A DNA stretch of 64,000 nt from a bacterium (GCA_024231905.1 JAAEQC010000102.1:234974-298973); one strand, 5' to 3'. Numbered from the stretch's first letter, positions 3,747-58,864 are shown. Notes: generated by a model from the letters alone, not told the origin. Numbers and translations: made by a program.

Positions 3747-3797
3747 GGCGGGCCCCATCGCGGCAGCCGTGTCCGGCTCGCAGCGAGAGGGAGAACC

Positions 3798-4133: not shown

Positions 4134-4141
4134 AAGTTGTT

Positions 4142-4218
4142 TGGGGCGTAGTCAAGTGGTCTAAGACACAAGGTTTTGGTCCTTGCATCCGCAGGTTCGA
4201 ATCCTGCCGCCCCAGCCA
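4142..4218 (+). tRNA. tRNA-Gln (anticodon TTG)
   Basis: Manual cloverleaf: acceptor tggggcg/cgcccca, 3-bp D stem gtc/gac, anticodon stem caagg/ccttg with loop ttTTGgt, T arm gcagg-ttcgaat-cctgc, discriminator G, encoded CCA. It lies between spoVG and prs, as in many genomes. Confidence 0.85.
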
Positions 4219-4340
4219 CGTTGCCATGAACCCCCAGCCCGGACCAGCCCGCCCCATGACCACCTTCGCCAGCGCAGTCGCTTTCCGTTCGCATGGCCGT
4301 ACGTCTCCTTGTACCACCGTCTCCGCGGAGGATTGACCCG

Positions 4341-40100: not shown

Positions 40101-40181
40101 TTGTTGTTGCCCGGGAGGCCGTGTGTTAGCTTGGGCCGGTCCGAGGCCCTTTGGAGTCATCAGAGAGACGATCCGGGTACC

Positions 40182-42932: not shown

Positions 42933-43968
42933 GGAACGGACGGAGATCGTCGCTGGGCTGCCCGACACGGTGCGGCGGATCCTGGCCCCGGGGACGCCGG
43001 TGGTGGTCACCGGTTGCGCCGGCTTCATCGGCAGTTCCCTGACCGAGGTCCTGCTGGAGGCGGGTTGTGCGGTCACGGGGGTCGACTGCCTCACCGACTA
43101 CTACGACCCGGCCCAGAAACTCGAGCACATGGCCGGTTTCGCCGACCATCCGGACTTTACCTTCGTGCGCAAGGACCTGAACGACCTGGATGCCGAGGAA
43201 CTCCTGCGCGGCAAACGCGCCGTCTTCCACCTGGCCGCCCAGGCCGGGGTGCGCGCCAGCTGGGGCCGGACCTTCGACGACTACGTGGCCTTCAACATCA
43301 CCGCCACCCAGCGCCTGCTCGAGGCCTGCAAGGCACCGGATGTGGCCGCCGACCTGGTGCGCTTCGTCTACTCGAGCAGCAGCTCCGTCTACGGCGATCA
43401 GCCGGAATTGCCGGTCACGGAGAAGGCGCTGCCCCAGCCGCGCTCCCCCTACGGCGTGACCAAGATGGCCGCCGAGCACCTGAGCGTGCTCTACGCCATG
43501 AACTACGGCGTGCCCACCAGCAGCCTGCGCTACTTCACGGTCTACGGTCCCCGCCAGAGGCCGGACATGGCCTTCCGCAAGTACATCGAGGCGGCCCTGG
43601 ACGGCCGCGTCTTCCAGGTGTACGGCGACGGTGGCCAGACCCGCGACTTCACCTACGTGGGCGACGCCGTGCGCTCCAACCTCCTGGCCGTGGCCTGCGA
43701 CGAGCCTTGGGGGGTCTTCAACACCGGCGGCGGCAGCCGGGTGGCCTTCGGCGAAACCCTGGACCTGCTGCAGGAGATCCTGCGCGAGCGCGTGCCGGGT
43801 CTGGAAGCTACCGTCGAATACACCGAGACCGCCCGTGGCGACGTCCGCGACACCTTCGCCGACCGGGCCCACGTGGAAGCGGCCATCGGCTACAAGCCCA
43901 CCGTGGGTATGGCCGAGGGTCTGGCCCGCGAAGTGGACTGGGCCATGGCCAGGAGGCGTCAGGCATGA
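42922..43968 (+). CDS. NAD-dependent nucleotide-sugar epimerase/dehydratase (SDR family)
   Basis: Rossmann motif VVVTGCAGFIGSSL and catalytic YGVTK (YxxxK). Overlaps the upstream stop by 11 nt. Confidence 0.8.
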   Translation: MDSRERTEIVAGLPDTVRRILAPGTPVVVTGCAGFIGSSLTEVLLEAGCAVTGVDCLTDYYDPAQKLEHMAGFADHPDFTFVRKDLNDLDAEELLRGKRAVFHLAAQAGVRASWGRTFDDYVAFNITATQRLLEACKAPDVAADLVRFVYSSSSSVYGDQPELPVTEKALPQPRSPYGVTKMAAEHLSVLYAMNYGVPTSSLRYFTVYGPRQRPDMAFRKYIEAALDGRVFQVYGDGGQTRDFTYVGDAVRSNLLAVACDEPWGVFNTGGGSRVAFGETLDLLQEILRERVPGLEATVEYTETARGDVRDTFADRAHVEAAIGYKPTVGMAEGLAREVDWAMARRRQA

Positions 43969-44915
43969 GCGAGGGCGCAGGAAACACCGTACGCAGCGAC
44001 ATCGCCGTGGTGGTGCCCGCCTTCGACGAAGCCGAGTCCCTGCCCGAACTGGTGGAGCGCATCGCCGCGGCCATCGACGCCATGGGCCGGACCTGGGAGG
44101 TGTGGATCGTCGACGACGGTTCCGCTGACGGGACCTTCGCCGTGGTGGAGCGCTTGGCCCAGGATCGTCCGCAGGTCCACGGCCTCAGCTTCGGTCGCAA
44201 CTTCGGCAAGGCGGCGGCCCTGGCCGCGGGCTTCGAGGCCGCGTCGGCTGAACTCGTCGTCACCATGGACGCCGACCTCCAGGACGACCCGGCGGAGATC
44301 CCCCACCTGGTGGCCAAGCTGGAGGAGGGCTGGGACCTGGTCTCCGGCTGGAAGCAGGACCGCCAGGACAGTTTCATCAAGAACAACACCAGCAAGATCT
44401 TCAACTGGTTCACCAGCCGCATGTGCGGGCTCAAGCTCCACGACTTCAACTGCGGCCTGAAGATCTATCGCCGCCAGGTGACTGAACGGGTCAAGCTGTA
44501 CGGCGAGATGCACCGCTACGTGCCGGCCCTGGCCCACCTGGACGGCTTCCGGGTAGCCGAACTGCCGGTGAGGCACGCGGCCCGCAAGTACGGCTCCACC
44601 AAGTACGGCATGGCCCGCTTCATTAACGGTTTCCTGGATCTGCTGACGGTGTATTTCCTGCACGCGCGCCGCACCTCGCCCCTGCATTTCTTCGGGCGCG
44701 GAGGCATGACCTTCCTGGGTGCCGGCGGGGCGATCAGTCTCTATTTCCTGGCCTGGTGGCTCATGGGCCACGGCCTGCGCGTGCGTCCGGTCCTCGTGCT
44801 CGGACTGGTGTTCATCATCGTGGGTTTCCAGTTCATCAGCCTGGGCCTCATCGCCGAACTGGTGGTATCCGGGCGCCATCCCGAAACCGCCTACCGCATA
44901 GCCCGGCGTGTCTGA
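43965..44915 (+). CDS. GT2 polyprenol-phosphate glycosyltransferase (GtrB/ArnC/CsbB-like, membrane-anchored)
   Basis: VVVPAFDEAESL...VDDGSADGT...DADLQDDP are DXD motifs. Two C-terminal TM helices. ATGA overlap with the epimerase; AGGAGG RBS. Confidence 0.8.
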   Translation: MSEGAGNTVRSDIAVVVPAFDEAESLPELVERIAAAIDAMGRTWEVWIVDDGSADGTFAVVERLAQDRPQVHGLSFGRNFGKAAALAAGFEAASAELVVTMDADLQDDPAEIPHLVAKLEEGWDLVSGWKQDRQDSFIKNNTSKIFNWFTSRMCGLKLHDFNCGLKIYRRQVTERVKLYGEMHRYVPALAHLDGFRVAELPVRHAARKYGSTKYGMARFINGFLDLLTVYFLHARRTSPLHFFGRGGMTFLGAGGAISLYFLAWWLMGHGLRVRPVLVLGLVFIIVGFQFISLGLIAELVVSGRHPETAYRIARRV

Positions 44916-45840
44916 ACGGCGCTGCATCCCCGACCGCCGCCAGGGTTTGCCCCCCCTGGTGGCCCTGGTCGTCAACTGGAATGGACGCGACGTCCTGCCC
45001 GAATGCCTGGCCTCCCTCCAGGACGGAGGCTATCCCGGTCTCAGGGTGCTGGTGGTGGACAACGGCTCCGTCGACGACTCGGTGGCCTGGACCCGCGAAC
45101 ACCACCCGGAATGCGAGATTCTCGAGACCGGCCGCAACCTGCGCTGGGCCGGCGGCAACAACGCGGGACTCCGTTACCTGGCTGATGGGGGATACGAGGG
45201 CCACGTCCTGCTCCTGAACAATGACACGGTAGTCCCCGAGGGTAGCCTGCGGCGCCTGGTGGTGGCCCTGGACGCCAACGAGGAGGCCTGGGCGGCCACA
45301 CCACGCATCTGCTACGCCCACGACCCGGCCAGGGCCTGGTACGACGGCGGCACTGTGGGCCGGTGGAGCGGCTGGGTGCGCCATGCGGGGATCCGCAAAT
45401 TGACGGGCAAGCTGCGCATGGAAGAACGCTACGTGGACTGGGGGACCGGCTGCGCCCTGCTGCTGTCCCCGGGGGCCCTGGACGCAGTGGGCGAGTTGGA
45501 CGAGGAGTTCCACTTCTACGGCGAGGACACGGACTACTCCCTGCGCATCACCGCGGCCGGGGGCCGCATCCTGCACGTGCCGCGCTCCCTGGTCCTGCAC
45601 AAGGTGAGCGCCTCGGTGGGCGGGACCACTCCCCTGAAGCTGTGGCTGCGTAGCCGCAGCCATTTGCGCCTGCTGCGCAAGCACTGGCCCGCGCGCAGTT
45701 GGCCCGTGCTGATTCCCCTGCAGGTGGGCTACCTGGCGGGCCACGCGGGCTGGCAATTGTGGCACGGCCGGCCCGAGGCGGCCTGGGCTGTGTGGCAGGG
45801 GGTCCTGGACGAATTGAGGGGCCGGCCCTACGTGGGCTGA
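44908..45840 (+). CDS. Glycosyltransferase family 2
   Basis: LVALVVNWNGRDVL...VVDNGSVDDS...FYGEDTDYSLR is a GT2 rhamnosyltransferase-like fold. GTG start overlaps the upstream stop. Confidence 0.7.
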   Translation: MSERRCIPDRRQGLPPLVALVVNWNGRDVLPECLASLQDGGYPGLRVLVVDNGSVDDSVAWTREHHPECEILETGRNLRWAGGNNAGLRYLADGGYEGHVLLLNNDTVVPEGSLRRLVVALDANEEAWAATPRICYAHDPARAWYDGGTVGRWSGWVRHAGIRKLTGKLRMEERYVDWGTGCALLLSPGALDAVGELDEEFHFYGEDTDYSLRITAAGGRILHVPRSLVLHKVSASVGGTTPLKLWLRSRSHLRLLRKHWPARSWPVLIPLQVGYLAGHAGWQLWHGRPEAAWAVWQGVLDELRGRPYVG

Positions 45841-45895
45841 GGTTTACAGGTGCGCGCCGTCAGTGGTATCATGGTAGCTGAACAACGACAATGAC

Positions 45896-48532
45896 TTGAG
45901 CGCAATGGCGGCGCCTTCCGGGCGGCGTCCGTCGCGCCGTTGCGGATTCTGCCCGGGGGTGGATCCGGAACTTGCCCGCCGGGAGATCTCTTTGGCCAAA
46001 CGCCGCACGGACCAGGAGCGCAGCACCGCCGCGAAACCGGCGGTGCCAGCGTCCCAGTCGCCCAGGCTCCGTACCTGGCTCCTGGTGACGGGCGCCCTCC
46101 TGCTGACCCTGCTCCTGCTCTATCCCGGGGCCGCGTTCCGCGGCGAGATCTTTGGCAGCAGCGACGCGGCCAACTCCGACGCCTTCCGCCTGGCCGGCGA
46201 CCGGTCCCTGGCCGAGGGCTCATACCCCTTGTGGAATCCCTACCTCTTCGCGGGCATGCCCACCTTCGGCTCCCTGTCCTACGTACGATTCCTGTATCCG
46301 CCTTCCATCCTGCTGATGCTCCTGCAGGAAAGCCTGGGATTCCCGCCGTTGACCTGGCTGCTGGCCCACCTGCTCTTTGGCGGCCTGGGCATGGCCTGGT
46401 TCCTGTCCCGCTGGCGGTTGCCGGTGGCTACCCTCGTTCTGGGCGGCGTACTGTGGCTGTTGCTGCCCAAGGTCGTGGCTTGGGGCGTCCACGGTCACGG
46501 CACCAAACTCGGCGCTGCCATGTACCTGCCCTGGATCGTGGGCTGGGCCTGGCGGGTCCTGGACGGTGGCGGCGCCCGGGCGGTGGGCATGACGGGGCTC
46601 CTGCTGGGCCTGCAACTGCTACGGGGCCACGTGCAAATCACCTACTACACCCTGCTGCTGGTGGGGTGGCTGGCCGTGTGGAACGGCCTGTGGCCCCTGG
46701 AGGCGGCGGTCCGCGCCAGGATGGCCGTCCGCTGGCGGCGCTGCGCCATGCTGGGGGGCGGTCTGGCTCTGGGCTTCCTGGTGGGCGCCCTGCTGCTGGT
46801 GCCCGTCCACGGCTACGCGGACCTGTCCATCCGCGGCCAGGATACCTCCGGCGGCGGGGGTGTGGGCATGGACTACGCCACGGGCTGGTCCCTGGCCCCG
46901 GCGGAACTGGGCACCTTCGTGCTGCCGGCGGCGGCGGGCTTCGGGCAGGCCACCTACATGGGCCTCATGCCGTTCACCGACTACCCCAACTATCTTGGCA
47001 TCCTGTTGCTCGCATTGGCGGCCGCCGGTTGGTGGCGCGGCGACCGCAGCCTGACCGTGGCCCTGGCCGTGGCGGCGCTGCTGGCGGTGTTCGTTTCCTT
47101 CGGACGGTACGGCTTCGGTTTCTATGAACTGCTCTACCGCCTGTTGCCCTACTTCAACAAGTTCCGCATCCCGTCGATGATCCTGGTGCTCACGGGATTC
47201 GTGGCCATCGTGCTGGCGGCGCGCGGGGTCGCGGCCTGGCGCGAGGGGACGACGCCCTGGAACCGTCCAGTGGTGCTGCCGGCGGTCCTGGGCCTGGCGG
47301 GGGTGGCCCTGCTCCTGGCGGGAGCTGCGGAATTGGCCAAGGGGACCTACGCCTCCGGTCTGGAGTCCCTGGCCGCCAGGGCTGGCCGTACGGCGGTCCC
47401 GGTGCTTCTGGACACGGCGTGGGATCTGCACAAGGCCAGCCTGGTACGCATCGGCCTGATTCTCATGGCCGCCGCCTCGGCCTTGTTCTACTCCACGCGC
47501 TCGGAGGCCTTCCGCCGCGGCGGTCTGGCCTGGGTGCTGCTCGGATTGCTGGCGGTGGATCTGGCGGGCGTCGATCGCCTCGTGATCCACCCGGAAAAGG
47601 GACTGTCCACGGTGGTCGCCGACGGCTCCGGCGGCGGGCGCCTGGTATCCGCGACCAAGCTCACGGGGCTGCCGACGCGCCAGTCCGCTGAGAGTTCCCC
47701 CTTGGCCCGGACCCTGCTCGCCGAGACGGGCCACGACCGCGTGTGGCCCCTGGGACGGCAGAGCGGCATGAACACCTGGATGGCCGACGGCGTGCATTCC
47801 CTGGGCGGCTACCACCCGGCCAAGCTTGCGGGCTACGAGCAGATCCGCCGCCGCCTCTTCGGCGCCGAGCCCGCCGGCCGCCTGGCCAACTGGCTGGGGG
47901 CACGCGTGGTGGCCTGGGAGGGGACCCTCTCCCCGGCGGACCTGGACTTTCTGGACGCCACGGGCCTGGACCTGGAACGCGCCTCCCGCGGCGACGGCCG
48001 CACAGCCTTGCACCGCAACCGCGCCGCCCTGCCGCGGGCGCGTCTCGTGACCGCCTGGCGCAGGGCATCCGCGTTGCCGGAAGGGGACGCCCTGGAGCCG
48101 TTCCTGGACGCGATCCAGGCCGGCCGCCTGGACGTGACATCCACCGTGACCCTGGACCGGGAGCCCGTGCCGGCCCCCGGCGAGACCGCGAATCCCTTGC
48201 CGGCGGTGGAGTTCCTGACCGACGGCCTCAACGAGGTCGTCCTGGAAACGACGGCCCCGGTCCCGGCCCTGCTCTTGCTTGCGGACATGATGGCTCCTGG
48301 TTGGCGCGTCGAGGTGGACGGCCGCCCGGCCGAGCTGCTGACGGCCGACCTGGTGCTGCGGGCGGTGGCCCTGGAGGCCGGCCGCCACACGGTGCGCTTC
48401 CATTACAGCGACCCGTCGGTGCGGACGGGCCTCCTGCTCAGTCTGACCGGACTCCTGGGAGTCGCGGTCCTGATCCTGTTCCCCTTCCTGCGCCGCCGGC
48501 TGGCGGCGTCCCCGGGTGGCGACCATGAGTGA
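45896..48532 (+). CDS. YfhO-family GT-C membrane glycosyltransferase
   Basis: About 13 TM helices followed by a large extracytoplasmic C-terminal domain, consistent with YfhO. TTG 45896; ATG 45905 is an alternative start. Confidence 0.65.
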   Translation: MSAMAAPSGRRPSRRCGFCPGVDPELARREISLAKRRTDQERSTAAKPAVPASQSPRLRTWLLVTGALLLTLLLLYPGAAFRGEIFGSSDAANSDAFRLAGDRSLAEGSYPLWNPYLFAGMPTFGSLSYVRFLYPPSILLMLLQESLGFPPLTWLLAHLLFGGLGMAWFLSRWRLPVATLVLGGVLWLLLPKVVAWGVHGHGTKLGAAMYLPWIVGWAWRVLDGGGARAVGMTGLLLGLQLLRGHVQITYYTLLLVGWLAVWNGLWPLEAAVRARMAVRWRRCAMLGGGLALGFLVGALLLVPVHGYADLSIRGQDTSGGGGVGMDYATGWSLAPAELGTFVLPAAAGFGQATYMGLMPFTDYPNYLGILLLALAAAGWWRGDRSLTVALAVAALLAVFVSFGRYGFGFYELLYRLLPYFNKFRIPSMILVLTGFVAIVLAARGVAAWREGTTPWNRPVVLPAVLGLAGVALLLAGAAELAKGTYASGLESLAARAGRTAVPVLLDTAWDLHKASLVRIGLILMAAASALFYSTRSEAFRRGGLAWVLLGLLAVDLAGVDRLVIHPEKGLSTVVADGSGGGRLVSATKLTGLPTRQSAESSPLARTLLAETGHDRVWPLGRQSGMNTWMADGVHSLGGYHPAKLAGYEQIRRRLFGAEPAGRLANWLGARVVAWEGTLSPADLDFLDATGLDLERASRGDGRTALHRNRAALPRARLVTAWRRASALPEGDALEPFLDAIQAGRLDVTSTVTLDREPVPAPGETANPLPAVEFLTDGLNEVVLETTAPVPALLLLADMMAPGWRVEVDGRPAELLTADLVLRAVALEAGRHTVRFHYSDPSVRTGLLLSLTGLLGVAVLILFPFLRRRLAASPGGDHE

Positions 48533-49250
48533 GCGTGTGGTGAACAAGGCCGTGGTGATCGTTCCGACCTACAACGAGGCGGAGAACGTGGGCCGCCTGC
48601 TGCCGGCCATCCTCGAGCGGGACGAGCGGCTGTCGGTGCTCGTGGTGGACGACAACTCCCCGGACGGCACGGCGGACGTGGTCAAGGCCCTGCCCGGGTT
48701 CGGCGACCGGATCATGATCCTCGAACGGCCCTGCAAGGCGGGCCTGGGCGCCGCCTACATCGCCGGCTTCCAGTGGGTGCTGGCCAATACGGAGGCCGAC
48801 GCCGTCTTCGAGATGGACGCGGACTTCAGCCACGCCCCCGACGCCCTGGACGAGTTTCTGGTGGAGATCGAAACCCACGACCTGGTCCTGGGCAGCCGCT
48901 ATCTGGGCGGCATCACCGTGGTGAACTGGCCCCTGTCCCGCCTCTTCCTCTCGGTGGGTGCGAACCTCTACGCCCGCGTCGTCACCGGCATGCCCATCCG
49001 CGATTGCACCGGCGGCTTCAAATGTTTCCGCCGCACGACCCTCGAACAACTCCCCCTGGGGGAGATCAAGAGCGACGGCTATTCCTTCCAGATCGAACTC
49101 AATTACCACTGCTGGCGCCGGGGGCTGACCATCAAGGAGATCCCCATCATCTTCACGGACCGTGTGGTGGGCGTCTCCAAGATGTCGCGCCGCATCATCG
49201 CCGAGGCCATGTGGATGGTGTGGGCCCTGCGCCTGAGGCGAATCCCTTGA
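48525..49250 (+). CDS. Polyprenol-monophosphomannose synthase-like GT2 (Ppm1/DPM1-like, soluble)
   Basis: VVIVPTYNEAENV...VVDDNSPDGT...EMDADFSHAP...GSRY is a DPM1-like catalytic domain without a TM anchor. Overlaps the YfhO stop by 8 nt. Confidence 0.8.
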   Translation: MSERVVNKAVVIVPTYNEAENVGRLLPAILERDERLSVLVVDDNSPDGTADVVKALPGFGDRIMILERPCKAGLGAAYIAGFQWVLANTEADAVFEMDADFSHAPDALDEFLVEIETHDLVLGSRYLGGITVVNWPLSRLFLSVGANLYARVVTGMPIRDCTGGFKCFRRTTLEQLPLGEIKSDGYSFQIELNYHCWRRGLTIKEIPIIFTDRVVGVSKMSRRIIAEAMWMVWALRLRRIP

Positions 49251-49270
49251 CCGGGGGCAACCTGTTTCCG

Positions 49271-51382
49271 GTGAAGCTGGCCGTGGTCATCGTCCACTAC
49301 AACACGAGCGACGACCTGGCCCGCTGTCTGGAATCCCTGAACGCCTACGGGCCGCCGGACGACTTCCGGATCGTGGTGGTGGACAACGCCTCCCGCGACG
49401 AGGGCCTGGCCGAGGTGCACCGCCGCTTCCCCGACTGTGAGTGGATCTTCAACGCGGACAACCAGGGCTACTCCCGCGGCTGCAACCGGGGCCTCGCCGC
49501 AGTGGAGGCCGAGTACTACCTGCTGCTCAACCCGGACGTGGTGGTCAAGCCCGGGGCCCTGGCCCGCCTGCTGGAATTCGCCGACGCCCACCCGCGGGCG
49601 GGCATCATCGGTCCCCAGTTGTTGAACGAGGACGGCACCATCCAGCATTCGTGCCGGCGCTTCTACACCTTCTGGACCCTGGTCCTGCGCCGCACCTTCC
49701 TGGGCAGGCTCTTCCCGGACAGCCGGCCGGTCCGGCGCCATCTCATGCAGGACTTCGACCACCGCTCGGCCCGTCCGGTGGACTGGCTCCTGGGCGGCTG
49801 CCTGCTTGTGCGCCGCAGCGCCGTCGATCGTACCGGCCCCATGGACGAGCGTTTCTTCCTCTACTTCGAGGACGTGGACTGGTGCTACCGCATGTGGCGC
49901 GCGGGCTGCGAGGTTCTCTACACCCCCGACGCGCGCTTCGTCCACCGACACAGGCGTTCCAGCGCCCAGGGCGCCACGAGCCGTTCCTTCTGGTTGCATC
50001 TGGGCTCCCTCATCTCCTTCTACGAGAAGTGGGGCGCGCTGGTGTGGCTGTTCAAGAAGTGGCGGGATCCCCTGCTGCTGTTCGTCATGTGGCTGCTGGA
50101 CATGACCGGCCTGGCGGCAGCCTTCGGACTGGCCTACGGGCTGCGAAATCTGGGGCACGACCTCTTCCCCGAGCAACTCTACCCCTTCGCCGAGTACCGG
50201 CCCCTGCTCCTGTTCGGGCTACTGCTGGCGACCCTCACCTTCGTCCTGGCGGGACGCTACCGCGGCGAGCATCTGCGCCGGCGGCGATCCGTGGTTGAAC
50301 ACCTGCAACAGACGGGCATCGTGGCGGTGCTCATGCTGGCCAGCACGTACCTGGGACACCTGGAGGTGGTCAGCCGGGCGGTGCTCCTGATGTTCGTGCC
50401 GCTGCTGGTGGTTTTCACGGCCCTGGGGGACGGTCTGGTGCGGCGCGTGCTGCGGCGGCTGGAACGCGGACACCTCTCCCTGGAACGCACGCTGCTGGTG
50501 GGACCGGCAGCGGTCTGGCGCACCTGGCTCGACCGGGCCGGGGACCTGGCGGCCCAGGGGGTCGACGTGGCCGGCTTCGTGGACGATCCGGGCGCCCTGG
50601 AATCGTTGCCGCCCCTGGCGGGTGGCACGGTGCCCTGGCTGGGCCGCCCGGCCGAGGCCGCGGACGTGGCCGAGCGGTACCGCATATCCCAGGTAGTGTT
50701 CCGGGATCTGCCGCCGCCGGGCGATCCCCTGTGGACGGCCGTGGGTGCCCTGCGCCGCATGCGAGTCCGCCTGCGCTGGCAGGGGGACGGCGTGTGGCTC
50801 CTGGCGGCTGCCACGCGCATGGAAGTCTTCGGAGGCGGGCTGAGCGCAGTTCAGGGCCAGGCGGGACGGCGAGCGGCCGGAGCCCTGGGGCGCCGTTTGT
50901 GCGGCGCGGTGGCGGGACTGCTGCTGGGCGTGGCGGCAGCGCTGCCCTGGGCCTGGTTGCGGCTGGTGGATGTTCGGCAAGGGCGTGCGCGGATCGACCG
51001 TGTGACCGCCTGGGACCGCTGGCGCGGGGGCACGCCCCTGGTACTCGCCTTGGCCACCGACGGCCAGGTGAAAGGTCTGGTCTGGCAGTGGCCGCTGGCC
51101 TGGTCCCTCCTGACCGGACGGGTGGCCATGTGGGGCGAACAAGCCCGGGCGGACGGGCCGCCGCCTCCGCCGCCGACCACCGGGGACCTCATGGATTTCT
51201 GGCGCGCCGAACCGGCGCCGCCGGGTTTGACGGGCGCCTGGGCGGCAGCCGGGGGAGGCGGCCGGCTGCGGGCGATCTGCGCTCGCCTGTGGCGCGATCC
51301 GGGCGGATTCGGTAACGTCGCGGAAACAGTACGAGCTAGGGAAGTCGTCGAGAAGGACCCTCCGGGCACCGAGGTGGAATGA
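49271..51382 (+). CDS. Fusion protein: N-terminal GT2 glycosyltransferase plus C-terminal multi-TM and CoA-binding-like module resembling the non-catalytic N-terminal half of WcaJ-type sugar transferases
   Basis: GT2 motifs (VVIVHYNTSDD, VVVDNASRDEG, FYFEDVDWCYR). Then 4-5 TM helices and LLVGPAAVWRTWLDRAGDLAAQGVDVAGFVDD...RISQVVF. No Bac_transf catalytic domain. GTG 49271; TTG 49247 is an alternative start. Confidence 0.65.
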   Translation: MKLAVVIVHYNTSDDLARCLESLNAYGPPDDFRIVVVDNASRDEGLAEVHRRFPDCEWIFNADNQGYSRGCNRGLAAVEAEYYLLLNPDVVVKPGALARLLEFADAHPRAGIIGPQLLNEDGTIQHSCRRFYTFWTLVLRRTFLGRLFPDSRPVRRHLMQDFDHRSARPVDWLLGGCLLVRRSAVDRTGPMDERFFLYFEDVDWCYRMWRAGCEVLYTPDARFVHRHRRSSAQGATSRSFWLHLGSLISFYEKWGALVWLFKKWRDPLLLFVMWLLDMTGLAAAFGLAYGLRNLGHDLFPEQLYPFAEYRPLLLFGLLLATLTFVLAGRYRGEHLRRRRSVVEHLQQTGIVAVLMLASTYLGHLEVVSRAVLLMFVPLLVVFTALGDGLVRRVLRRLERGHLSLERTLLVGPAAVWRTWLDRAGDLAAQGVDVAGFVDDPGALESLPPLAGGTVPWLGRPAEAADVAERYRISQVVFRDLPPPGDPLWTAVGALRRMRVRLRWQGDGVWLLAAATRMEVFGGGLSAVQGQAGRRAAGALGRRLCGAVAGLLLGVAAALPWAWLRLVDVRQGRARIDRVTAWDRWRGGTPLVLALATDGQVKGLVWQWPLAWSLLTGRVAMWGEQARADGPPPPPPTTGDLMDFWRAEPAPPGLTGAWAAAGGGGRLRAICARLWRDPGGFGNVAETVRAREVVEKDPPGTEVE

Positions 51383-53787
51383 GCATGCGGCACACAGGAA
51401 GCGGAAGACTCATGACGGCCTGCGCCCTGGCGTTGCTGGCGGTGGCGGCCGCCACGGCGGCAGCGGCGCCCGTATTCGAGCCCCTGACCCGGGCCCGCGA
51501 AGTAAGCACCCTGCTCGAACTGGACGGAAAGGTCTTCGGGGGCACGGGCGACGGCGGCGTGTTCGTATGGGACGCCGACGATCCCGGGCAGTTCGAACGC
51601 TGGACCGCCGGCACCCAACTGGGCAGCGCCCGGGTAGTGGATCTGGCCTGGACCGGACGCTACCTGTGGGTCGCCACCGACGACGGCGGCCTGACCCGGG
51701 TGGAGGACCCGGCCTCGGACGCACCGTCTTTCCGGCAGATCGGCTCGACCATGTCCACCTTCGCCACCACCGCCGTGGCCGGTCTATTGCGGGGCGACCA
51801 GGAACGGGTCTGGTACGGTCTGGGTGACGGCGGTCTGGGGGAGATCACCGACGGCTTCGACGGTTCGGTTTATACCACCAGCGACGGTCTGGTCAGCGAC
51901 ACGATCCGGGCGCTCCACATCCACGACGGTGAACTGTGGATCGGAACGCCCGCCGGCATCTCCCGTTTCGCCGACGGGGTCTTCCACGACGCCACCGCCG
52001 GCCTGGCCGGCCTGAACACCCGCGTCTTCGTCACCGACACCGCCGGCGATCTCTTCGCCGCCGGCAGCGGCGGTGTCCATCGCTGGGACTCCTCCGGGGA
52101 GGCCTGGGTATCCCTGGGCGGTATCGGCCGTACAGTGGTCGGCCTGGCGGTGGTGGCCGACGATCTCTACGCGCTGGGCGCCTACGCCGGCGGAACGGCG
52201 ACCCTGCACCGGTGGAACGGCACCGGATTCGACGACCTGGCTCTGCCCGAGCCCCGGACCCTGGCCACCGGCGGCGGCACGGCGGTCTGGCTGGGCGGCC
52301 GGATCGACGAACCCGGCATGCAGGTGAACCGTTCGGGACTGGCCTTCTACGCACGTCTGGACGCGGGCGGCGCGACCACGGTCTGGCAGCCGGCCCTGAC
52401 CCTGCCCGCCAACTGCGCGGGGGTGACTTTCGGCGCCGACGGCCGCCCGTGGCTCGGCTCCCGCTGGGGCGAGGCCTTCTCCGGTCGCCGGGATGACGGT
52501 ACCTGGGAAAACATCTACGAGATAGCCACGGTGGCCAACGACTCCTCCGGTCTCATCAACCAGATCGCACCCATTCTGGCCATGGCCACCGGCGCCGATG
52601 GCGTGGTCTGGGTGCCCCAGACCGGCTCCGGCGTGCTACGCCACGATCCGGCCACGGGCCGAACCGACCAGATCCGCCCCTTCAACAGCGGCCTGTCAGG
52701 GAATTCGCTGATCGGCGCCGTGGGGCATCCGGACGGCCCGGTTCTTTTCCTGCACGACTGGCTGGACACGGACGACAAGGTGGACGTGCTGGTGGACCCG
52801 GTCCACTGGCGCAATCCGGCGAACTGGCTCAGCCTGCCCCTGGGATCGGGCGGCCTGGGCGACGGTCCCAACGTATGGGACGCCCACGTGGCGCGGCGCG
52901 ACCAGATCTGGTTCGCTGTGGAGGGCACGGGTCTGGTGCGCTGGGACGTCAACGGCCTGAGCGCCGGACCCGACGATCCGCTGACCTGGCTCGATCAGTC
53001 CGACGACCACTGGACCGCACCCGTGAACGACTTCCCGAATACCTTCCTCGACCCGACCCAGGCGCGAGGCATCGACGACGGCCCAGGCGGTTCCCTGTGG
53101 GTGGGCGGCAACGGCGTGGTGCGCTTCCGCTACGACGGCGGCCTGATCACCACCCTGGACGACCTGGGCACGGCCGCCGGCGACGAGGGCGGCCTGAGCA
53201 ACAGCCGCGTGTACGACGTGGCCACCGACCGCCACGGGTACCTGTGGGTGGCGAACGCCTCGGGTCTGGACCGGGTCCGGCTCGGAGCGGGCGACCCTGT
53301 GGTGGACTCGTGGTTCGACGCCCTGACCTATGCCACGGACGGCGGCATCAACGGCCGCTACCTGTCCACCGCCATCGCCGACATGCCTGGCTCGAACTAC
53401 GACTTCGCGCGCCTGGCCCTGGATTCCGACCGCGGGCGCCTCCTGCACAGCGGCGACCGGGGTGTGTCCCTGGTCGACGTGGGCGGGCCGGTGGGTGCGG
53501 CGAGCGGCTCCGCATCGGCGCAACTCTATCCGAATCCCTGGCGCCCGGAACTGGGCGACGGTCTGCTCAGGATCGGCGGTCTGGGCGTGGAACCGGGGGA
53601 GACGGTCGAGGTGGGCATCTACACCGTCGAAGGCCAGCTGGTCTACCAGGATCCGACAGTGGCGCCGGACACGGGCTTCTGGCGAGGCGTCAACCGGGTG
53701 GGCAACCCGGTGGCGACGGGCCTGTACGTGGTGAAGGTGTCCTGGCGCGGAGAACACCTGATGCGGACCCTGGCGGTGGTCAGGTGA
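51379..53787 (+). CDS. Secreted beta-propeller (Reg_prop-like repeat) protein with a C-terminal T9SS-type / FlgD-Ig-like sorting domain
   Basis: Signal peptide (LALLAVAAATAAAAP). Repeated GG..R.D..G.LW.G. propeller-blade motifs. C-terminal roughly 90 aa LYPNPWRPELGDG...GLYVVKVSWRGEHLMRTLAVVR matches the Por/T9SS C-terminal-domain pattern. ATGA overlap upstream. Confidence 0.65.
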   Translation: MSMRHTGSGRLMTACALALLAVAAATAAAAPVFEPLTRAREVSTLLELDGKVFGGTGDGGVFVWDADDPGQFERWTAGTQLGSARVVDLAWTGRYLWVATDDGGLTRVEDPASDAPSFRQIGSTMSTFATTAVAGLLRGDQERVWYGLGDGGLGEITDGFDGSVYTTSDGLVSDTIRALHIHDGELWIGTPAGISRFADGVFHDATAGLAGLNTRVFVTDTAGDLFAAGSGGVHRWDSSGEAWVSLGGIGRTVVGLAVVADDLYALGAYAGGTATLHRWNGTGFDDLALPEPRTLATGGGTAVWLGGRIDEPGMQVNRSGLAFYARLDAGGATTVWQPALTLPANCAGVTFGADGRPWLGSRWGEAFSGRRDDGTWENIYEIATVANDSSGLINQIAPILAMATGADGVVWVPQTGSGVLRHDPATGRTDQIRPFNSGLSGNSLIGAVGHPDGPVLFLHDWLDTDDKVDVLVDPVHWRNPANWLSLPLGSGGLGDGPNVWDAHVARRDQIWFAVEGTGLVRWDVNGLSAGPDDPLTWLDQSDDHWTAPVNDFPNTFLDPTQARGIDDGPGGSLWVGGNGVVRFRYDGGLITTLDDLGTAAGDEGGLSNSRVYDVATDRHGYLWVANASGLDRVRLGAGDPVVDSWFDALTYATDGGINGRYLSTAIADMPGSNYDFARLALDSDRGRLLHSGDRGVSLVDVGGPVGAASGSASAQLYPNPWRPELGDGLLRIGGLGVEPGETVEVGIYTVEGQLVYQDPTVAPDTGFWRGVNRVGNPVATGLYVVKVSWRGEHLMRTLAVVR

Positions 53788-55226
53788 TGCCCCCGTCCCG
53801 CCTGCTCGTGGTCGGGGCGGGAGTGGCCGGCCAGACCCTGGTGCGCGAGATCCTGCGGGACCGCTTGCCCGCCGAACCGGTGGCTTTCCTGGACGACGAC
53901 GAAAGCCTGGCCGGACAGACCGTCTGCGGGTTGCCGGTGCTGGGCACCTCCGAGGACCTGGAGCGCGTGGCCAGCGAAGTGGACGCCCAGGAGGTCCTGC
54001 TGGCGATTCCCTCGTCGGGCGGACGCCTCGTTCGGCGCCTGGTCATCCTCTGCAAGCGTGCCGGACTGCCCTTCCGCATCGTGCCCGGCCTACGCGACAT
54101 CATTCTCGGCGACGTGAGCTTCGCCCAGGTGAGCCACGTGGAGCCGGAGCATCTGCTTGGCCGGGAGTCTGTGGACTTCAAGGACGAGGAGGCCAGCCGG
54201 GTGGTGGCTGGAAGGCGGGTCCTGGTGACCGGCGCCGGCGGTTCCATCGGCTCCGAACTGTGTCGGCACCTGCTGGACCTCGAACCGGCGGAGCTGATCC
54301 TGCTGGGCCGGGGGGAGAACAGCCTCTTCGACATCGGCACCGAGTTGGAGTCGCAGCGCGGCGAAACGCGCTTGCAGACGGTCATCGCCGACGTGCGGGA
54401 CCGGGCGCGGCTGAGGGTTCTCGCCGGCCGCCTGCAACCGGATCTCATCCTGCACGCGGCCGCCCACAAGCACGTTCCCTTCATGGAGGACAACCCGGAG
54501 GAGGCGGTGGCCGTCAATGTGGGGGGCACGGCCAACCTCATCGAGTTCGCCAGGACCGTGGGGGCAGAGCGCTTCGTGCTGATCAGCACCGACAAGGCGG
54601 TCATGCCCTCGAGCATCATGGGCGCCACCAAGAAGCTCGCCGAACAACTGGTGCGGCAGGCGGCGGCCGATGGCGATGGCACGCGCTTCATGACCGTGCG
54701 CTTCGGCAACGTCCTGGGCAGCCGCGGTTCGGTGGTCCCCTTCTTCATGAAGCGGATCGCCGCGGGTCAGCCCCTGCCCATCACCGACCCCCAGATGACC
54801 CGCTACTTCATGACCATCAAGGAGGCGGCGCTGCTGGTCATCGAGGCCATGGTGCTGGGGGAACGGGGTGCCACCTACATCCTGGAGATGGGCAACGCGG
54901 TCTCGATTCTGGAGCTCGCCCGGAACCTGCTCGTGCTGTCGGGCTACGATCCGGCGGGCGGCGACGACGGCCCCGGCATCGAGATCACCGGTCTCCGGCC
55001 CGGAGAACGCCTGCACGAAGTGCTCCACGAACCCGACGAGCAACTCCTGCCCAGCGAGAATCCCCTGATCCGGCGCGCGGTGGCCGGCGACACGGATCCG
55101 GCCCGGGTGGCCGCGGCCGTGGACGACCTGCTGGCCCTGGCCGTGGCCGGGGATACGGGCGGACTACGCCGCCTACTGGCCGATCTCACCGGGCGCGCCG
55201 TCCTCGTGGCGCCGCCACTCGAGTAG
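53787..55226 (+). CDS. Polysaccharide biosynthesis protein CapD / UDP-GlcNAc 4,6-dehydratase (PglF/WbpM-like, soluble form)
   Basis: Two Rossmann-like regions (LLVVGAGVAGQ, VLVTGAGGSIGSEL) and a catalytic region (FVLISTDKAV...MGATKKLAE). Start at ATG 53787 or GTG 53784, overlapping the upstream stop. Confidence 0.8.
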   Translation: MPPSRLLVVGAGVAGQTLVREILRDRLPAEPVAFLDDDESLAGQTVCGLPVLGTSEDLERVASEVDAQEVLLAIPSSGGRLVRRLVILCKRAGLPFRIVPGLRDIILGDVSFAQVSHVEPEHLLGRESVDFKDEEASRVVAGRRVLVTGAGGSIGSELCRHLLDLEPAELILLGRGENSLFDIGTELESQRGETRLQTVIADVRDRARLRVLAGRLQPDLILHAAAHKHVPFMEDNPEEAVAVNVGGTANLIEFARTVGAERFVLISTDKAVMPSSIMGATKKLAEQLVRQAAADGDGTRFMTVRFGNVLGSRGSVVPFFMKRIAAGQPLPITDPQMTRYFMTIKEAALLVIEAMVLGERGATYILEMGNAVSILELARNLLVLSGYDPAGGDDGPGIEITGLRPGERLHEVLHEPDEQLLPSENPLIRRAVAGDTDPARVAAAVDDLLALAVAGDTGGLRRLLADLTGRAVLVAPPLE

Positions 55227-55236
55227 GGGCGCGGCG

Positions 55237-56301
55237 GTGGAGGTCGGCATCCAGGCGACAACGCCCGCGGATTGGCCCGCCCTGGTGGCGGCCGATCCGG
55301 CGGCCGACTACTTCCATACCGCTGCCTGGAGTTCCATCGTCGCCCGTCACGTGCCCGGCGCCCGCGCCCTGTGGATCACCGTGCGCGACGCCGGCGAACT
55401 CGTGGGCGGCCTGGCTGCCGTTGCCCTGGGCGGTACGGTGCGACGCTGCCACTCGGGAGCCTTCGGTTGTGCCGGCGGACCCCTGGTGGCCGACGGCGAC
55501 GCCCGCCGCGGCCCGGTCATCGCCGGCCATCTCCTGGACGAACTGGTCGGTCGGCGGGGCGGTCTCCTGGCATCGGTCGGCGTCTCCCTCAATCCGGACC
55601 ACGAAGAACGCTGGGGCGGACGCCTCGCTGCCGACGCCCGTTTCCGGCGGGTCGACACTCCCGCGGCCGTGGTCTCCCTGGACGGCGGACCTGACGCCGT
55701 CGCCGCCCGCATGCGCAAGAGCAAGCGCAACGAACGCAACCGCGGCCTGCGGCGCGGTGCCGAATTCCTGGTGACCCGGGACCCGGATCACCTGGCGGCC
55801 TACCATCGCATCCACGTGCAGGCAGCCGGCGCCTGGGGCCAACCGGCGGTCCCTTTGGCCATGCTGCAGGACCTGCTCGACCAGGGGGCGGGCCCCGAGG
55901 GGGGCGAAGCCTACTTCGTAGCCGTGCGCTGCGAGGGACGGATCGTGGGCGGGCACCTGAACTTCCACCTGGGCGGGTCGGTCACCGCCTGGCATGGCGT
56001 CACCGATCCGGTCCTGGCCCGCACCCACTTCCCGTCCACCGTGGCCGTGTGGGGGGACGCGGTGGAGGCCTGCCGCCGCGGTGCGACCAGCCTGGATCTG
56101 GGGGGCAGCGGCGGCATCCCCTCCCTGGAGTCCTTCAAGCGGGGCTTCGGCGCCGAACGCCGGGAGCGTGGCTGGTACGTGGCGGAAACGGCGCCGCTGC
56201 GGCTGCTGCGGAGCCTGCGCGGCCTGGTCCGGCGCAAGGAAGGCAACGGGCGACGCTGGCACGACGGCGCCACCGGCGCGTCCGGTGGAGGTACGCCGTG
56301 A
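55237..56301 (+). CDS. FemAB-like / GNAT-fold (Acetyltransf_6) acyl- or aminoacyl-transferase
   Basis: Duplicated GNAT-like halves (YFHTAAWSSIV...; VTAWHGVTDP...LDLGGSG...SLESFKRGFGA), as in FemAB-family proteins. GTG start. Confidence 0.55.
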   Translation: MEVGIQATTPADWPALVAADPAADYFHTAAWSSIVARHVPGARALWITVRDAGELVGGLAAVALGGTVRRCHSGAFGCAGGPLVADGDARRGPVIAGHLLDELVGRRGGLLASVGVSLNPDHEERWGGRLAADARFRRVDTPAAVVSLDGGPDAVAARMRKSKRNERNRGLRRGAEFLVTRDPDHLAAYHRIHVQAAGAWGQPAVPLAMLQDLLDQGAGPEGGEAYFVAVRCEGRIVGGHLNFHLGGSVTAWHGVTDPVLARTHFPSTVAVWGDAVEACRRGATSLDLGGSGGIPSLESFKRGFGAERRERGWYVAETAPLRLLRSLRGLVRRKEGNGRRWHDGATGASGGGTP

Positions 56302-57611
56302 GACTCCTGGCCGCGGGCGCCCGCATCCTGTCCGGCCGCGTGGCCCAGATCCTGGCCAACGCCGCAGTGGTTTTCTGGGTGGCCAAGACCCTGGGACCCA
56401 CGGGGCAGGGCCACTACAGTCTCACCGTGGCCGTGGCCCAGCTCGCGGCTGCCCTCCTGGCCGGCGGCATGGGCCTGGCGGCGGTGCCACCCCTGCGCCG
56501 GGACCGCATCCCGGCGGCCCGCATGGTCTCGGTCCAGGCCGGCTGGGCCGGCGCTACGGGGCTGGTGCTGCTGGGCGTGGCCGCCCTGGCCGGCGGTGGG
56601 GCGGTGGGCGCCTTCTTCGCCCGGCATCTGGGCTGGTCGCCGGGGCTGGCCTTCGCCGTGGCCATCGGCGCCACCGGATTGCTCACCTTCGAGATCTTCT
56701 CCTACGACCTGCTGGCCCGTGGCAGGCTGGTCATCGGTTCGGCCATCAACGGCTGGCGCGCCGCCGGCCACCTGGTGATCGTCGGCACCGCGGGCCTGGC
56801 CGGGATGCTCGGCTTCGCCCAGGCGGTGGGGGCCTTCGCCCTGGCCCAGTGTGCGGGCGCGGCGGTCCTGGTGGGGGTCGTCCTGCGGGAGATCCGCCGG
56901 CCTTGGCCCCGGCCCGGCGCCAAGCCCGGTCCGCCCGCGCCCCTGCGCGACAAGGAGCTCCCGGCGGACCTGGCGTCCTACTCCCGCCTGCGGTTGGTCC
57001 TGTTCAACCTTCAGCGGGGTTGGCTGGGACAGCTCTCGGCCGTGGCCTACTTTCTGCTGCTGCGCCTGGACCAGGGACTGCTGGCCCGCTACCACGGTGC
57101 AGCGGAGGTGGGGGTGTACTCGGTGGCGGTGCATCTGGGCGAGATGCTGTGGTTGTTGCCCGGGGCCATGACGCCTCTGCTGGTCCATACCTCGGCGGCC
57201 GACGCCGGCGATCCGGACCGTAACCGCACGGCCGTGCGGGCCGTGGGCATCGGCATGGTCGTGACCCTGGCCGCGGCGGTACCCCTGGCCCTGGTGGCGG
57301 GTCCCCTGCTGTCCCTGTTGGCCGGCGGCGCCTATGCCGGCGCGGTTCCGGCCCTGCGGGCCCTGCTGCCCGGCATCGTGGCCTTCGCCCCGGGGGCGGT
57401 CCTGGCCGGCGACTTCATCGGTCGCGGTAAACCCCATTGGAACACCCAGGCCAGCCTGTTGACCGTGGTGGTGAACCTGGCAGCGGGCCTGTGGCTCATC
57501 CCCGAGCACGGGGCCGTGGGCGCGGCCTGGTCCAGCACGGTGGCCTATGCCTGCGGGTCGGCTCTGATGCTGATTCGCTTCCGGCAAGCGATCCGCCGCG
57601 ACCAGGCCTGA
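56298..57611 (+). CDS. MOP-superfamily polysaccharide flippase (Wzx-like)
   Basis: About 12-14 TM helices with Wzx-like topology. GTG overlaps the upstream stop (GTGA). Confidence 0.65.
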   Translation: MRLLAAGARILSGRVAQILANAAVVFWVAKTLGPTGQGHYSLTVAVAQLAAALLAGGMGLAAVPPLRRDRIPAARMVSVQAGWAGATGLVLLGVAALAGGGAVGAFFARHLGWSPGLAFAVAIGATGLLTFEIFSYDLLARGRLVIGSAINGWRAAGHLVIVGTAGLAGMLGFAQAVGAFALAQCAGAAVLVGVVLREIRRPWPRPGAKPGPPAPLRDKELPADLASYSRLRLVLFNLQRGWLGQLSAVAYFLLLRLDQGLLARYHGAAEVGVYSVAVHLGEMLWLLPGAMTPLLVHTSAADAGDPDRNRTAVRAVGIGMVVTLAAAVPLALVAGPLLSLLAGGAYAGAVPALRALLPGIVAFAPGAVLAGDFIGRGKPHWNTQASLLTVVVNLAAGLWLIPEHGAVGAAWSSTVAYACGSALMLIRFRQAIRRDQA

Positions 57612-57827: not shown

Positions 57828-58304
57828 ATGACCGACCAAACCCACAGCACGGACCAGGGCGCGGCCTTCACCTTTCATGGCTCCTACACGCGAGCGGTGG
57901 ATGTGAAAGGCCGTTTCAACCTGCCCTTCCGGTTCCGGCACCAGGGCGCCGACGACGAGAAATACGTGGTCTCCAAGGGACCTGACGGCAATCTGGCCGT
58001 CCATCCCCACAGCGCCTGGATTGCCGCCTACAACCGGATGATGAATGGTGCGCCCGGACCCGAGCTGCGGAGGAACCTGCGGCGCATGAGCCGGGACAGC
58101 TCCCCGGTCCAGCCCGACGCCCAGGGGCGGATCGCTGTGCCGGCGGAACTGCTGGCGGGCGTGGGGATCGGTCGCAAGGTGACCGTCATCGGAGTCGGCG
58201 CCTACATGGAACTCTGGGATCCGGAAGCCCTCGATACGGGCGACGCCGTGGCCGGCGAACCGGATACCGCGTTCAACGACCTCTTCTTCGGGGGAGGGAG
58301 CTGA
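57828..58304 (+). CDS. mraZ: Transcriptional regulator MraZ
   Basis: Duplicated MraZ halves (VDVKGRFNLP...; AQGRIAVPAELL...), first gene of the dcw cluster. Confidence 0.85.
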   Translation: MTDQTHSTDQGAAFTFHGSYTRAVDVKGRFNLPFRFRHQGADDEKYVVSKGPDGNLAVHPHSAWIAAYNRMMNGAPGPELRRNLRRMSRDSSPVQPDAQGRIAVPAELLAGVGIGRKVTVIGVGAYMELWDPEALDTGDAVAGEPDTAFNDLFFGGGS

Positions 58305-58450: not shown

Positions 58451-58864
58451 ATGCCGAGAGAGACGACCCGTCAGGCCGCGAGGCAGGAGGCCGCACGCAG
58501 CACGATGGAGATTCAGGTCCAGCACCAGGAACGGACTGTGCGGGTCTCTCTCTCGGGAATCCTCGATCGCGAAGGGGTCGCCGCACTGGCCGCCCGGGTG
58601 GCTCCCGGGCTGGCCGGCCGCGGTTGTCACGTCGTGCTCGATGGAACGGGCTTGACCCACATGGACTACCGTGCTACCCGCCCGTTCATAACCTGGCACC
58701 GCCGCCTGCGCACCTACGGCCACGAACTCTTCCTGCAGGGCTGGAGTGATTACCTCAAAGCCATCCTGGTCATGGAAGACTGGGACGTGGCTCCAGGCGA
58801 TCCGCCGGCCGGCTTGCCCACCCTCCGTCACCTGGGGAGCATCGCCGCCGTACGGATGCCATGA
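58451..58864 (+). CDS. STAS-domain protein (anti-sigma-factor-antagonist-like) inserted between mraZ and rsmH
   Basis: MEIQVQHQERTVRVSLSGILDREGVAALAARV...VVLDGTGLTHMDYRATRPFITW is a SpoIIAA-like STAS fold. GGAAGGA RBS 9 nt before ATG 58451; the stop overlaps the rsmH ATG (ATGA). The ORF is open from 58355, so the start is uncertain. Confidence 0.5.
   Translation: MPRETTRQAARQEAARSTMEIQVQHQERTVRVSLSGILDREGVAALAARVAPGLAGRGCHVVLDGTGLTHMDYRATRPFITWHRRLRTYGHELFLQGWSDYLKAILVMEDWDVAPGDPPAGLPTLRHLGSIAAVRMP

Follow-up and report, generated by a model that had tools for sequence, protein, structure and literature searches.

At the 3′ end of a glycan operon in a 64,000-nucleotide (nt) stretch of bacterial DNA (GCA_024231905.1, JAAEQC010000102.1:234974-298973; hereafter the window), three consecutive genes, g44, g45 and g46, encode a predicted uridine diphosphate-N-acetylhexosamine (UDP-HexNAc) 4,6-dehydratase, a FemX-like tandem-GNAT transferase and a Wzx-type flippase (Table 1). 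Our best explanation, to which we give a probability of roughly 0.55, is that this cassette makes an aminoacylated amino sugar on a lipid-linked glycan and that the aminotransferase was lost from the locus or relocated in the clade to which the window belongs. An earlier reading of the DNA alone (the sequence-only reading) had proposed that an unusual sugar, acylated or aminoacylated, is flipped on a lipid carrier, and this is still the best-supported interpretation, given the nearest structures of g45 and the DegT aminotransferase gene that lies upstream of its orthologue in 30 of 46 related loci. The dehydratase and the flippase belong to known families and are unremarkable within them; what is new is the explicit arrangement of dehydratase, aminotransferase, Fem-like and Wzx genes, which extends through the uncultured phylum Krumholzibacteriota, lies beside the division and cell wall (dcw) cluster, occurs in four gene-content states and has a PorZ-like neighbour.

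In the proposed pathway, g44 would convert UDP-HexNAc to UDP-4-keto-6-deoxy-HexNAc, on which a C4 aminotransferase, whose gene sits in cis in sister clades and here presumably in trans, would act. The g45 protein would then move an aminoacyl group from aminoacyl-tRNA to the 4-amine of the sugar, and the product would be 4-N-aminoacyl-4-amino-4,6-dideoxy-HexNAc, that is, bacillosamine with an amino acid in place of the acetyl group added by PglD. This sugar would enter a polyprenyl-linked glycan, and g46 would flip the glycan.

The G+C content of the window is approximately 70%, which makes raw lists of open reading frames uninformative, and the gene calls therefore rest on codon-position G+C. 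This measure supports three consecutive plus-strand genes exactly at positions 53787–57611, the interval that had been proposed previously. The gene that precedes them, g43, shares 1 nt with g44; 10 nt lie between g44 and g45; g45 and g46 have 4 nt in common (GTGA, with GGAGG ahead); and 216 nt separate g46 from mraZ.

Predicted functions of the three proteins

The central question is what kind of transferase g45 is. The protein, which is 100% identical to an NCBI protein from a metagenome-assembled genome (MAG), matches Pfam Acetyltransf_6 (PF13480) with 62 bits and an E-value of 8e-17, and all 111 homologues that were found are PF13480 proteins; PF13480 and the FemAB family PF02388 belong to the same clan. 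An AlphaFold model built from a 40-sequence alignment, with a predicted local distance difference test (pLDDT) score of 92, contains two GNAT domains. When the model was compared with the PDB by Foldseek, Sba18 and Sbb17 came out on top (E-value 4e-19, TM 0.81, identity 22–24%), followed by FemX and FemA. Sba18 and Sbb17 are aminoacyl-tRNA-dependent peptide synthases whose structures were solved with the amino sugar streptothrisamine. In the structure table, the values for g45 were 27.5 against Sbb17, 26.1 and 25.4 against FemX of S. aureus and W. viridescens, respectively, 25.0 against FemA and 17.7–19.7 against the aminoacyl-phosphatidylglycerol synthase domains of MprF. A search of the PDB sequences with the g45 family profile returned Sba18 at 2e-10 and, weakly, FemX at 0.02.

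One additional piece of evidence was provided by individual residues. The pair F300-K301 of g45 (SLESFKRGFGAE) is aligned with Phe304-Lys305 of W. viridescens FemX and is invariant in 47/47 g45 orthologues, across which the basic helix K163-R-N-E-R-N-R-G-L-R-R-G174, at the start of the second GNAT domain and a candidate counterpart of the tRNA-binding helix of FemX, is near-invariant as well. Lys305 is the catalytic residue of FemX, and the equivalent Phe328/Lys329 is required in DhpH-C; Orf11, a relative of Sba18 and Sbb17, glycylates streptothrisamine using Gly-tRNA (PMC12945691). The fold and the invariant Phe-Lys pair thus uphold the earlier FemAB/GNAT-like call, and we accordingly count g45 among the FemABX proteins in structural terms, with a tandem-GNAT fold in the model and the catalytic Phe-Lys of FemX in the alignment. 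Judging from this predicted structure, g45 is probably tRNA-dependent, with aminoacyl-tRNA as its predicted donor, and it probably adds an amino acid to an amino sugar, its predicted acceptor. In terms of sequence, g45 represents a largely Krumholzibacteriota-restricted subfamily outside the curated FemAB models: in a scan at one genome per species, it was found almost solely in MAGs carrying that phylum label.

Another possibility is that the pathway is the same and that g45 is an acyl-CoA-dependent N-acyltransferase, which would add an acetyl or other acyl group to the amino sugar. The placement of g45 in Acetyltransf_6, a GNAT family, speaks for such a donor, as do the names of its homologues (“GNAT family N-acetyltransferase” or “CelD/BcsL acetyltransferase”), its failure to match the curated FemAB models and the example of the FemX-like protein HfsK, whose donor is not established. 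In the structure table, the first acyl-CoA-dependent tandem GNAT appears with a value of 15.6. We regard an acyl-CoA donor as unlikely, while still giving it some weight.

The dehydratase g44 matches Pfam Polysacc_synt_2 (PF02719) with 339.5 bits against a cut-off of 20.2 (E-value 2e-101) and also the C-terminal half of CoA_binding_3. Its best match in the PDB is the catalytic domain of Campylobacter jejuni PglF (5BJU, 2.7e-60), followed by CapD (6BWC), FnlA, FlaA1 and CapE. In the alignment of g44 with 5BJU, ISTDKAV is paired with ISTDKAV, IMGATK with IMGCTK and VTGAGGSIGSE with VSGAGGTIGSE, and g44 has Met where classical short-chain dehydrogenases/reductases (SDRs) have Tyr. According to a structural study of PglF, catalysis is reportedly performed by Thr395/Asp396/Lys397, with Met at the SDR Tyr position. 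The sequence-only reading had made its assignment depend on a catalytic Ser/Tyr/Lys triad, which is the wrong test for g44, because the PglF motifs carry Met at the Tyr position; the PglF-type Thr-Asp-Lys and Met-x3-Lys motifs are both present.

The same reading had described g44 as a soluble short form reduced to the catalytic core. Solubility is supported, as no hydrophobic 19-mer or transmembrane segment was found in g44 or in four orthologues, and the four-helix N-terminal domain of the full-length enzymes is absent. The description as a bare core has to be corrected: residues 5–130 form a Rossmann-like domain (match to 3NKL, 6e-11), which follows the transmembrane region in the full-length enzymes. 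The N-terminal membrane domain would be dispensable for catalysis, because the PglF crystal structure was obtained without it. Family membership thus shows g44 as a putative cytoplasmic, transmembrane-less UDP-HexNAc 4,6-dehydratase of the PglF type, and its predicted product is UDP-4-keto-6-deoxy-HexNAc.

The matches of g46 to the Pfam families MurJ, Polysacc_synt and Polysacc_synt_3 are sub-threshold (20–21 bits, cut-offs of 23–28), and the g46 profile found no match among the PDB sequences. The homologues of g46 match PF01943, PF03023 or PF13440 and bear “O-antigen/teichoic acid export” names. Approximately 11–12 transmembrane helices were predicted from the sequence, and the AlphaFold2 model (pLDDT 87.5) has approximately 12. 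Foldseek placed the lipid III flippase WzxE first (9g9n/9g9p, E-value 4e-9, TMt 0.75–0.77), with MurJ and MATE proteins behind. The flippase call is therefore confirmed by a modelled fold that is closest to WzxE and that shows g46 to be of the Wzx type, with a lipid-linked oligosaccharide as its putative substrate.

Could g45 and g46 instead serve peptidoglycan, g45 by adding branches in the manner of Fem enzymes and g46 as a MurJ-like flippase for lipid II, with the dehydratase as unrelated cargo? In every locus the pair lies right before mraZ-rsmH-ftsL-ftsI-murE, g46 has weak MurJ matches, and both FemX and FemA are structurally close to g45. However, the g46 model is nearer to WzxE than to MurJ, and its 437 residues form approximately 12 helices, compared with 14 in MurJ; the pair overlaps or abuts the upstream glycan genes, whereas the 216-nt gap sets it apart from mraZ; and structurally g45 comes closest to the pair Sbb17/Sba18, which acylates an amino sugar, and not to FemX. 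We consider a role in peptidoglycan synthesis highly improbable. Compared with FemX, FemA and MurM, g45 differs in sequence (13–20% identity and no PF02388 match), in the absence of the coiled-coil insertion of FemA and in its partners, which are sugar-modifying enzymes and a Wzx protein rather than Mur enzymes.

Related loci and the aminotransferase gap

These data raise another question: does the missing aminotransferase reflect a chemistry specific to this genome, or does it represent one state of a more widely distributed locus? The one-genome-per-species scan yielded 48 loci, nearly all of them labelled Krumholzibacteriota and a few with looser labels; the neighbouring genes were scored per locus by tblastn, and the 46 resolved loci were counted. 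The arrangement goes beyond chance, because the same gene order occurs in 48 species-level genomes: a family 2 glycosyltransferase (GT2) fused to CoA_binding_3, a propeller protein, the dehydratase and DegT genes where they are present, the FemX-like gene, the Wzx gene and then, usually directly, mraZ. The FemX-like/Wzx pair was found upstream of mraZ in 46/46 loci, whereas the two genes before it vary. Of the 46 loci, 18 have both dehydratase and DegT, 12 have DegT without the dehydratase, 10 have the dehydratase without DegT and 6 have neither, with L056 as a further example of the last type. The window falls into the dehydratase-only type together with all of its clade (L001, L006, L007, L009, L044 and L045), and so do three other loci.

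On the tree of FemX-like proteins, these states are distributed clade-wise, with at least three independent losses of DegT. Since dehydratase and DegT vary among the 46 loci, the gap in the window can be understood as a lineage-specific loss or relocation of DegT; the conserved locus has four gene-content states that follow clades, and the window shows one of them rather than a genome-specific chemistry. A locally missing aminotransferase should accordingly be annotated with caution and not be taken as new chemistry. The twelve DegT-only loci need an unlinked enzyme that forms the keto sugar, and the pathway genes are therefore dispersed in the phylum.

The position of DegT in the sister clades is informative about the function of g45. 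DegT lies directly upstream of the g45 orthologue in 30/46 loci, and in L002 and L004 its stop codon overlaps the start of the FemX-like gene. The DegT proteins of the relatives score approximately 330–350 bits on both the PseC and the ArnB models, below both cut-offs; PseC and ArnB are C4 aminotransferases acting on UDP-4-keto sugars. In the g45 alignment, no column separates the loci with DegT from those without it, and 84 columns are conserved in both groups. As no change in g45 tracks the presence of DegT, g45 most likely does the same job in both groups, with the aminotransferase encoded elsewhere in the second.

A number of observations weigh against the synthesis of an aminoacylated amino sugar by this cassette. 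First, g45 has no match to Pfam FemAB (PF02388), and its score of 30.1 bits on TIGR03019 (“FemAB PEP-CTERM”) falls short of the cut-off of 260.35. Its identity to Sba18 is just 22–24%. In addition, we know of no PF13480 enzyme with a biochemically defined donor. Second, the acceptor of g45 need not be the product of the dehydratase and DegT, because the six loci with neither gene, and L056, keep the FemX-like gene. Third, Pfam scans covering essentially all genes supported by third-codon-position G+C found no DegT or other sugar aminotransferase in the 64 kb, where SelA is the sole related pyridoxal phosphate enzyme, and a tblastn search of the window with the DegT proteins of two relatives (E ≤ 10) returned nothing credible; the previous statement that the window has no aminotransferase is thus correct. 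Finally, none of the best 120 orthologues of the relatives' DegT proteins, a weak test that reaches close orthologues only, lies on the contig of the window or on the other dehydratase-only contigs. A remnant of a deleted DegT gene between g44 and g45 is impossible, because the gap between them is only 10 nt.

Some of these observations would also fit an alternative in which no amination takes place in this clade. The 4-keto-6-deoxy-HexNAc would be used as such or reduced by an unlinked reductase, and the acceptor aminoacylated by g45 would be something else, such as a de-N-acetylated sugar (compare the VimE/VimA route) or some other residue in the lipid-linked glycan. Consistent with this, none of the seven loci in the clade of the window has DegT and three others lack it too, the loci with neither gene retain g45, and the best 120 DegT orthologues include none on the window contig; furthermore, 4-keto-6-deoxy-HexNAc occurs in some polysaccharides, such as the pneumococcal type 5 capsule. 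However, the locus contains no reductase or deacetylase, and its sole other SDR, g37, resembles a UDP-glucuronate 4-epimerase; the residues of g45 show no shift between loci with and without DegT; and DegT and the g45 orthologue are translationally coupled in L002 and L004. A pathway lacking the amination step appears improbable to us.

The best PDB matches of g37 are 6ZL6 (7e-68), which is named “Epimerase domain-containing protein” in the PDB, and MoeE5 (6KV9, 2e-60), both of which we take to be UDP-glucuronate 4-epimerases. On the basis of these matches, g37 was ruled out as the missing 4-keto reductase of a route to N-acetylquinovosamine or N-acetylfucosamine, and because of the same resemblance, it is not a substitute for the aminotransferase step.

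The preferred reading, an aminoacylated amino sugar made with an aminotransferase lost from the locus or relocated, leads to an unusually explicit, testable prediction, namely, that a 4-amino sugar linked to a nucleotide or a lipid is aminoacylated in a tRNA-dependent manner. In this phylum-wide cassette, the FemX-like gene comes right after those of the 4,6-dehydratase and the C4 aminotransferase and right before a dedicated Wzx gene, and the four gene-content states amount to natural “knock-outs” for comparative glycomics.

A PorZ-like neighbour and similarity to known systems

The gene directly upstream of the cassette, g43, encodes a protein with an N-terminal hydrophobic, signal-like segment (residues 4–22) and two Reg_prop propellers. 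Its score on the NCBIfam model T9SS_PorZ is 43 bits (E-value 2e-11), below the cut-off of 260 and over the C-terminus only, while the g43 family profile matches PorZ in the PDB (5M11, 9.4e-15) over 216 residues (chain 527–742), as well as the double propellers of hybrid two-component systems. The g43 orthologue of L002 passes TIGR04183, the type A sorting domain of type IX secretion systems (T9SS), with 27.2 against 23. Such similarity suggests that Krumholzibacteriota may have type IX secretion and that the glycan operon may be linked to the anchoring of its cargo. In some relatives, a large protein is encoded between the flippase and mraZ; in L002 (12679–15696, plus strand), it has 1005 residues and a C-terminus resembling the PorU/T9SS sorting domain (34.7 bits on the PorU model; 21.1 on TIGR04183, just under 23).

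In Bacteroidota, T9SS cargo is attached by its C-terminus to an N-aminoacyl “linking sugar”, whose free amine takes part in the bond, and the system also includes the DegT aminotransferase PorR and the Wzx-like protein PorS. PorZ brings anionic lipopolysaccharide (A-LPS) to the PorU sortase (PMC8545088). The linking sugar of Prevotella intermedia is an N-alanyl deoxyhexose; VimA is absent from this species, and the authors call the pathway that moves alanine onto the deoxyhexose unknown (PMC11969387). VimA of Porphyromonas gingivalis is described in the literature as a “putative N-acetyltransferase” and “NAT_SF”.

The PorZ-like neighbour ties the cassette to the question of how N-aminoacyl linking sugars are made. 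The activities predicted for the cassette are just those expected for the synthesis of such a sugar, and it can tentatively be asked whether the cassette is a dedicated pathway for the T9SS linking sugar of Krumholzibacteriota. The dehydratase, the C4 aminotransferase and the tRNA-dependent FemX-like enzyme would build N-aminoacyl-4-amino-4,6-dideoxy-HexNAc, which Wzx would flip; the PorZ-like protein would present the sugar to a PorU-type sortase, and the α-amine of the amino acid would capture the C-terminus of the cargo. We hold this to be a speculative proposal, on the whole rather unlikely. If it were true, it would provide the first candidate enzyme class and donor (aminoacyl-tRNA) for N-aminoacyl deoxyhexose linking sugars and would extend cargo-to-glycolipid anchoring beyond Bacteroidota.

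The P. gingivalis Wbp/Vim and PorR/PorS/PorZ system, which makes the N-seryl linking sugar by which T9SS cargo is anchored to A-LPS, is similar in that an amino sugar gains an amino acid, there selected by the putative N-acyltransferase VimA. Further components of that system are a DegT protein (PorR), PorS, which is Wzx-like, and the double propeller PorZ, which delivers the glycan; in the window, a PorZ-like gene lies right before the cassette. The sugars differ, that of P. gingivalis being a 2,3-diamino uronic acid and the one predicted here a 4-amino-6-deoxy-HexNAc. The P. gingivalis genes are scattered, whereas the genes described here form one operon, which has no VimE-like deacetylase.

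A comparison with the PglF-PglE-PglD route of C. jejuni, which leads to UDP-N,N′-diacetylbacillosamine, shows that g44 is nearest to PglF and shares its ISTDKAV and IMGxTK motifs and that, in sister loci, the dehydratase is followed by a C4 aminotransferase and then by an N-acyl-type transferase. In contrast to the Pgl route, g44 has no transmembrane domain, the window has no local aminotransferase, and a FemX-like tandem GNAT takes the place of the left-handed β-helix acetyltransferase PglD. The enzymes Orf11, Sba18 and Sbb17, which aminoacylate streptothrisamine for streptothricin-type antibiotics, come from actinomycete antibiotic clusters and are approximately 40–60 residues shorter than g45, which belongs to an envelope-glycan operon with a flippase.

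The sequence-only reading had called FemAB-like enzymes beside polysaccharide loci rare, which is unjustified because FemX-like genes in glycan loci are already known. Tandem-GNAT or FemAB-like genes lie within polysaccharide or glycan clusters in the case of Caulobacter HfsK, of the PEP-CTERM FemAB proteins of TIGR03019, on which g45 scores just 30 bits, and of C. difficile CDR20291_0244, which adjoins an FdtB-like aminotransferase in the type B flagellin glycan locus. To our knowledge, none of these three kinds of enzymes has a defined donor or acceptor. An unrelated precedent is locus L058, which looks archaeal (DUF7123, DUF7525, DUF8044 and DUF1616 neighbours) and in which a Polysacc_synt flippase, a FemAB/Acetyltransf_6 protein and a family 4 glycosyltransferase (GT4) are encoded in a row at positions 706–4579.

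Other genes of the operon and the window

The genes g44–g46 form the 3′ end of a glycan operon at approximately 37897–57611, which begins after a riboflavin/nusB block. The order of its first half is GT4, LPG_synthase_TM-like protein, TMEM260-like family C glycosyltransferase (GT-C; 916 residues), SDR, ArnC/GtrB-like GT2 and GT2; the second half consists of a YfhO-like GT-C (857 residues), a small GT2, GT2 fused to a membrane and CoA_binding_3 part, the propeller protein (791 residues) and g44–g46. Downstream of g46 lies the dcw cluster (mraZ, rsmH, ftsL, ftsI and murE). The coordinates are presented in Table 1.

Table 1 Cassette genes and other features of the window, in window coordinates
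Feature	Position	Strand	Description
g44	53787-55226	+	479 aa; putative transmembrane-less UDP-HexNAc 4,6-dehydratase of the PglF/WbpM/CapD type
g45	55237-56301	+	354 aa; predicted FemX-like tandem-GNAT transferase, Pfam Acetyltransf_6 (PF13480)
g46	56298-57611	+	437 aa; predicted Wzx-type lipid-linked oligosaccharide flippase, MOP superfamily
g43	51412-53787	+	791 aa; putative secreted double β-propeller protein with PorZ-like C-terminus, overlaps g44
g42	49247-51382	+	711 aa; N-terminal GT2 fused to ~4-5 transmembrane helices and a CoA_binding_3 region
g41	48516-49250	+	Small GT2
g40	45959-48532	+	857 aa; YfhO-like GT-C membrane protein
g37	42922-43968	+	SDR resembling UDP-glucuronate 4-epimerase, sole other SDR of the locus
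mraZ	57828-58304	+	Start of the dcw cluster and downstream operon boundary, common to related loci
Two genes	39105-42932	+	LPG_synthase_TM-like protein (MprF flippase-domain-like), then 916-aa TMEM260-like GT-C (protein O-mannosyltransferase-like)
ArnC/GtrB-like gene	43965-44915	+	ArnC/GtrB-like GT2 in the same operon
Bac_transf gene	3-917	+	C-terminal half of a Bac_transf phosphoglycosyltransferase, cut at the window start
UbiA gene	917-1813	+	UbiA-family prenyltransferase, next to the preceding gene
selA	17542-18966	+	SelA selenocysteine synthase
Histidine kinase gene	26940-30719	-	1259-aa hybrid histidine kinase with Reg_prop propellers
STAS_2 gene	58451-58864	+	STAS_2-domain protein, between mraZ and rsmH

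The order g40-g41 is kept in L001, L002, L004, L006 and L056, and g42 is kept in nearly all related loci. The membrane and CoA_binding_3 part of g42 matches the first 240 positions of phosphoglycosyltransferases of the WbaP/WcaJ type, and g42 lacks the catalytic Bac_transf domain. The glycan locus has no initiating enzyme of its own, and the Bac_transf phosphoglycosyltransferase encoded approximately 37 kb upstream, at the very start of the window, is a candidate for this role. Together, the LPG_synthase_TM-like protein, the TMEM260-like GT-C, the ArnC/GtrB-like GT2 and the YfhO-like GT-C suggest periplasmic glycosylation from polyprenyl-phosphate sugars.

The selenocysteine synthase gene and the gene of the hybrid histidine kinase are unrelated to the cassette. 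The STAS_2-domain gene interrupts a dcw cluster that is canonical in other respects, which is unusual; it shows 66–85% identity to the genes in the corresponding position of L001 and L007 and was found in most related loci.

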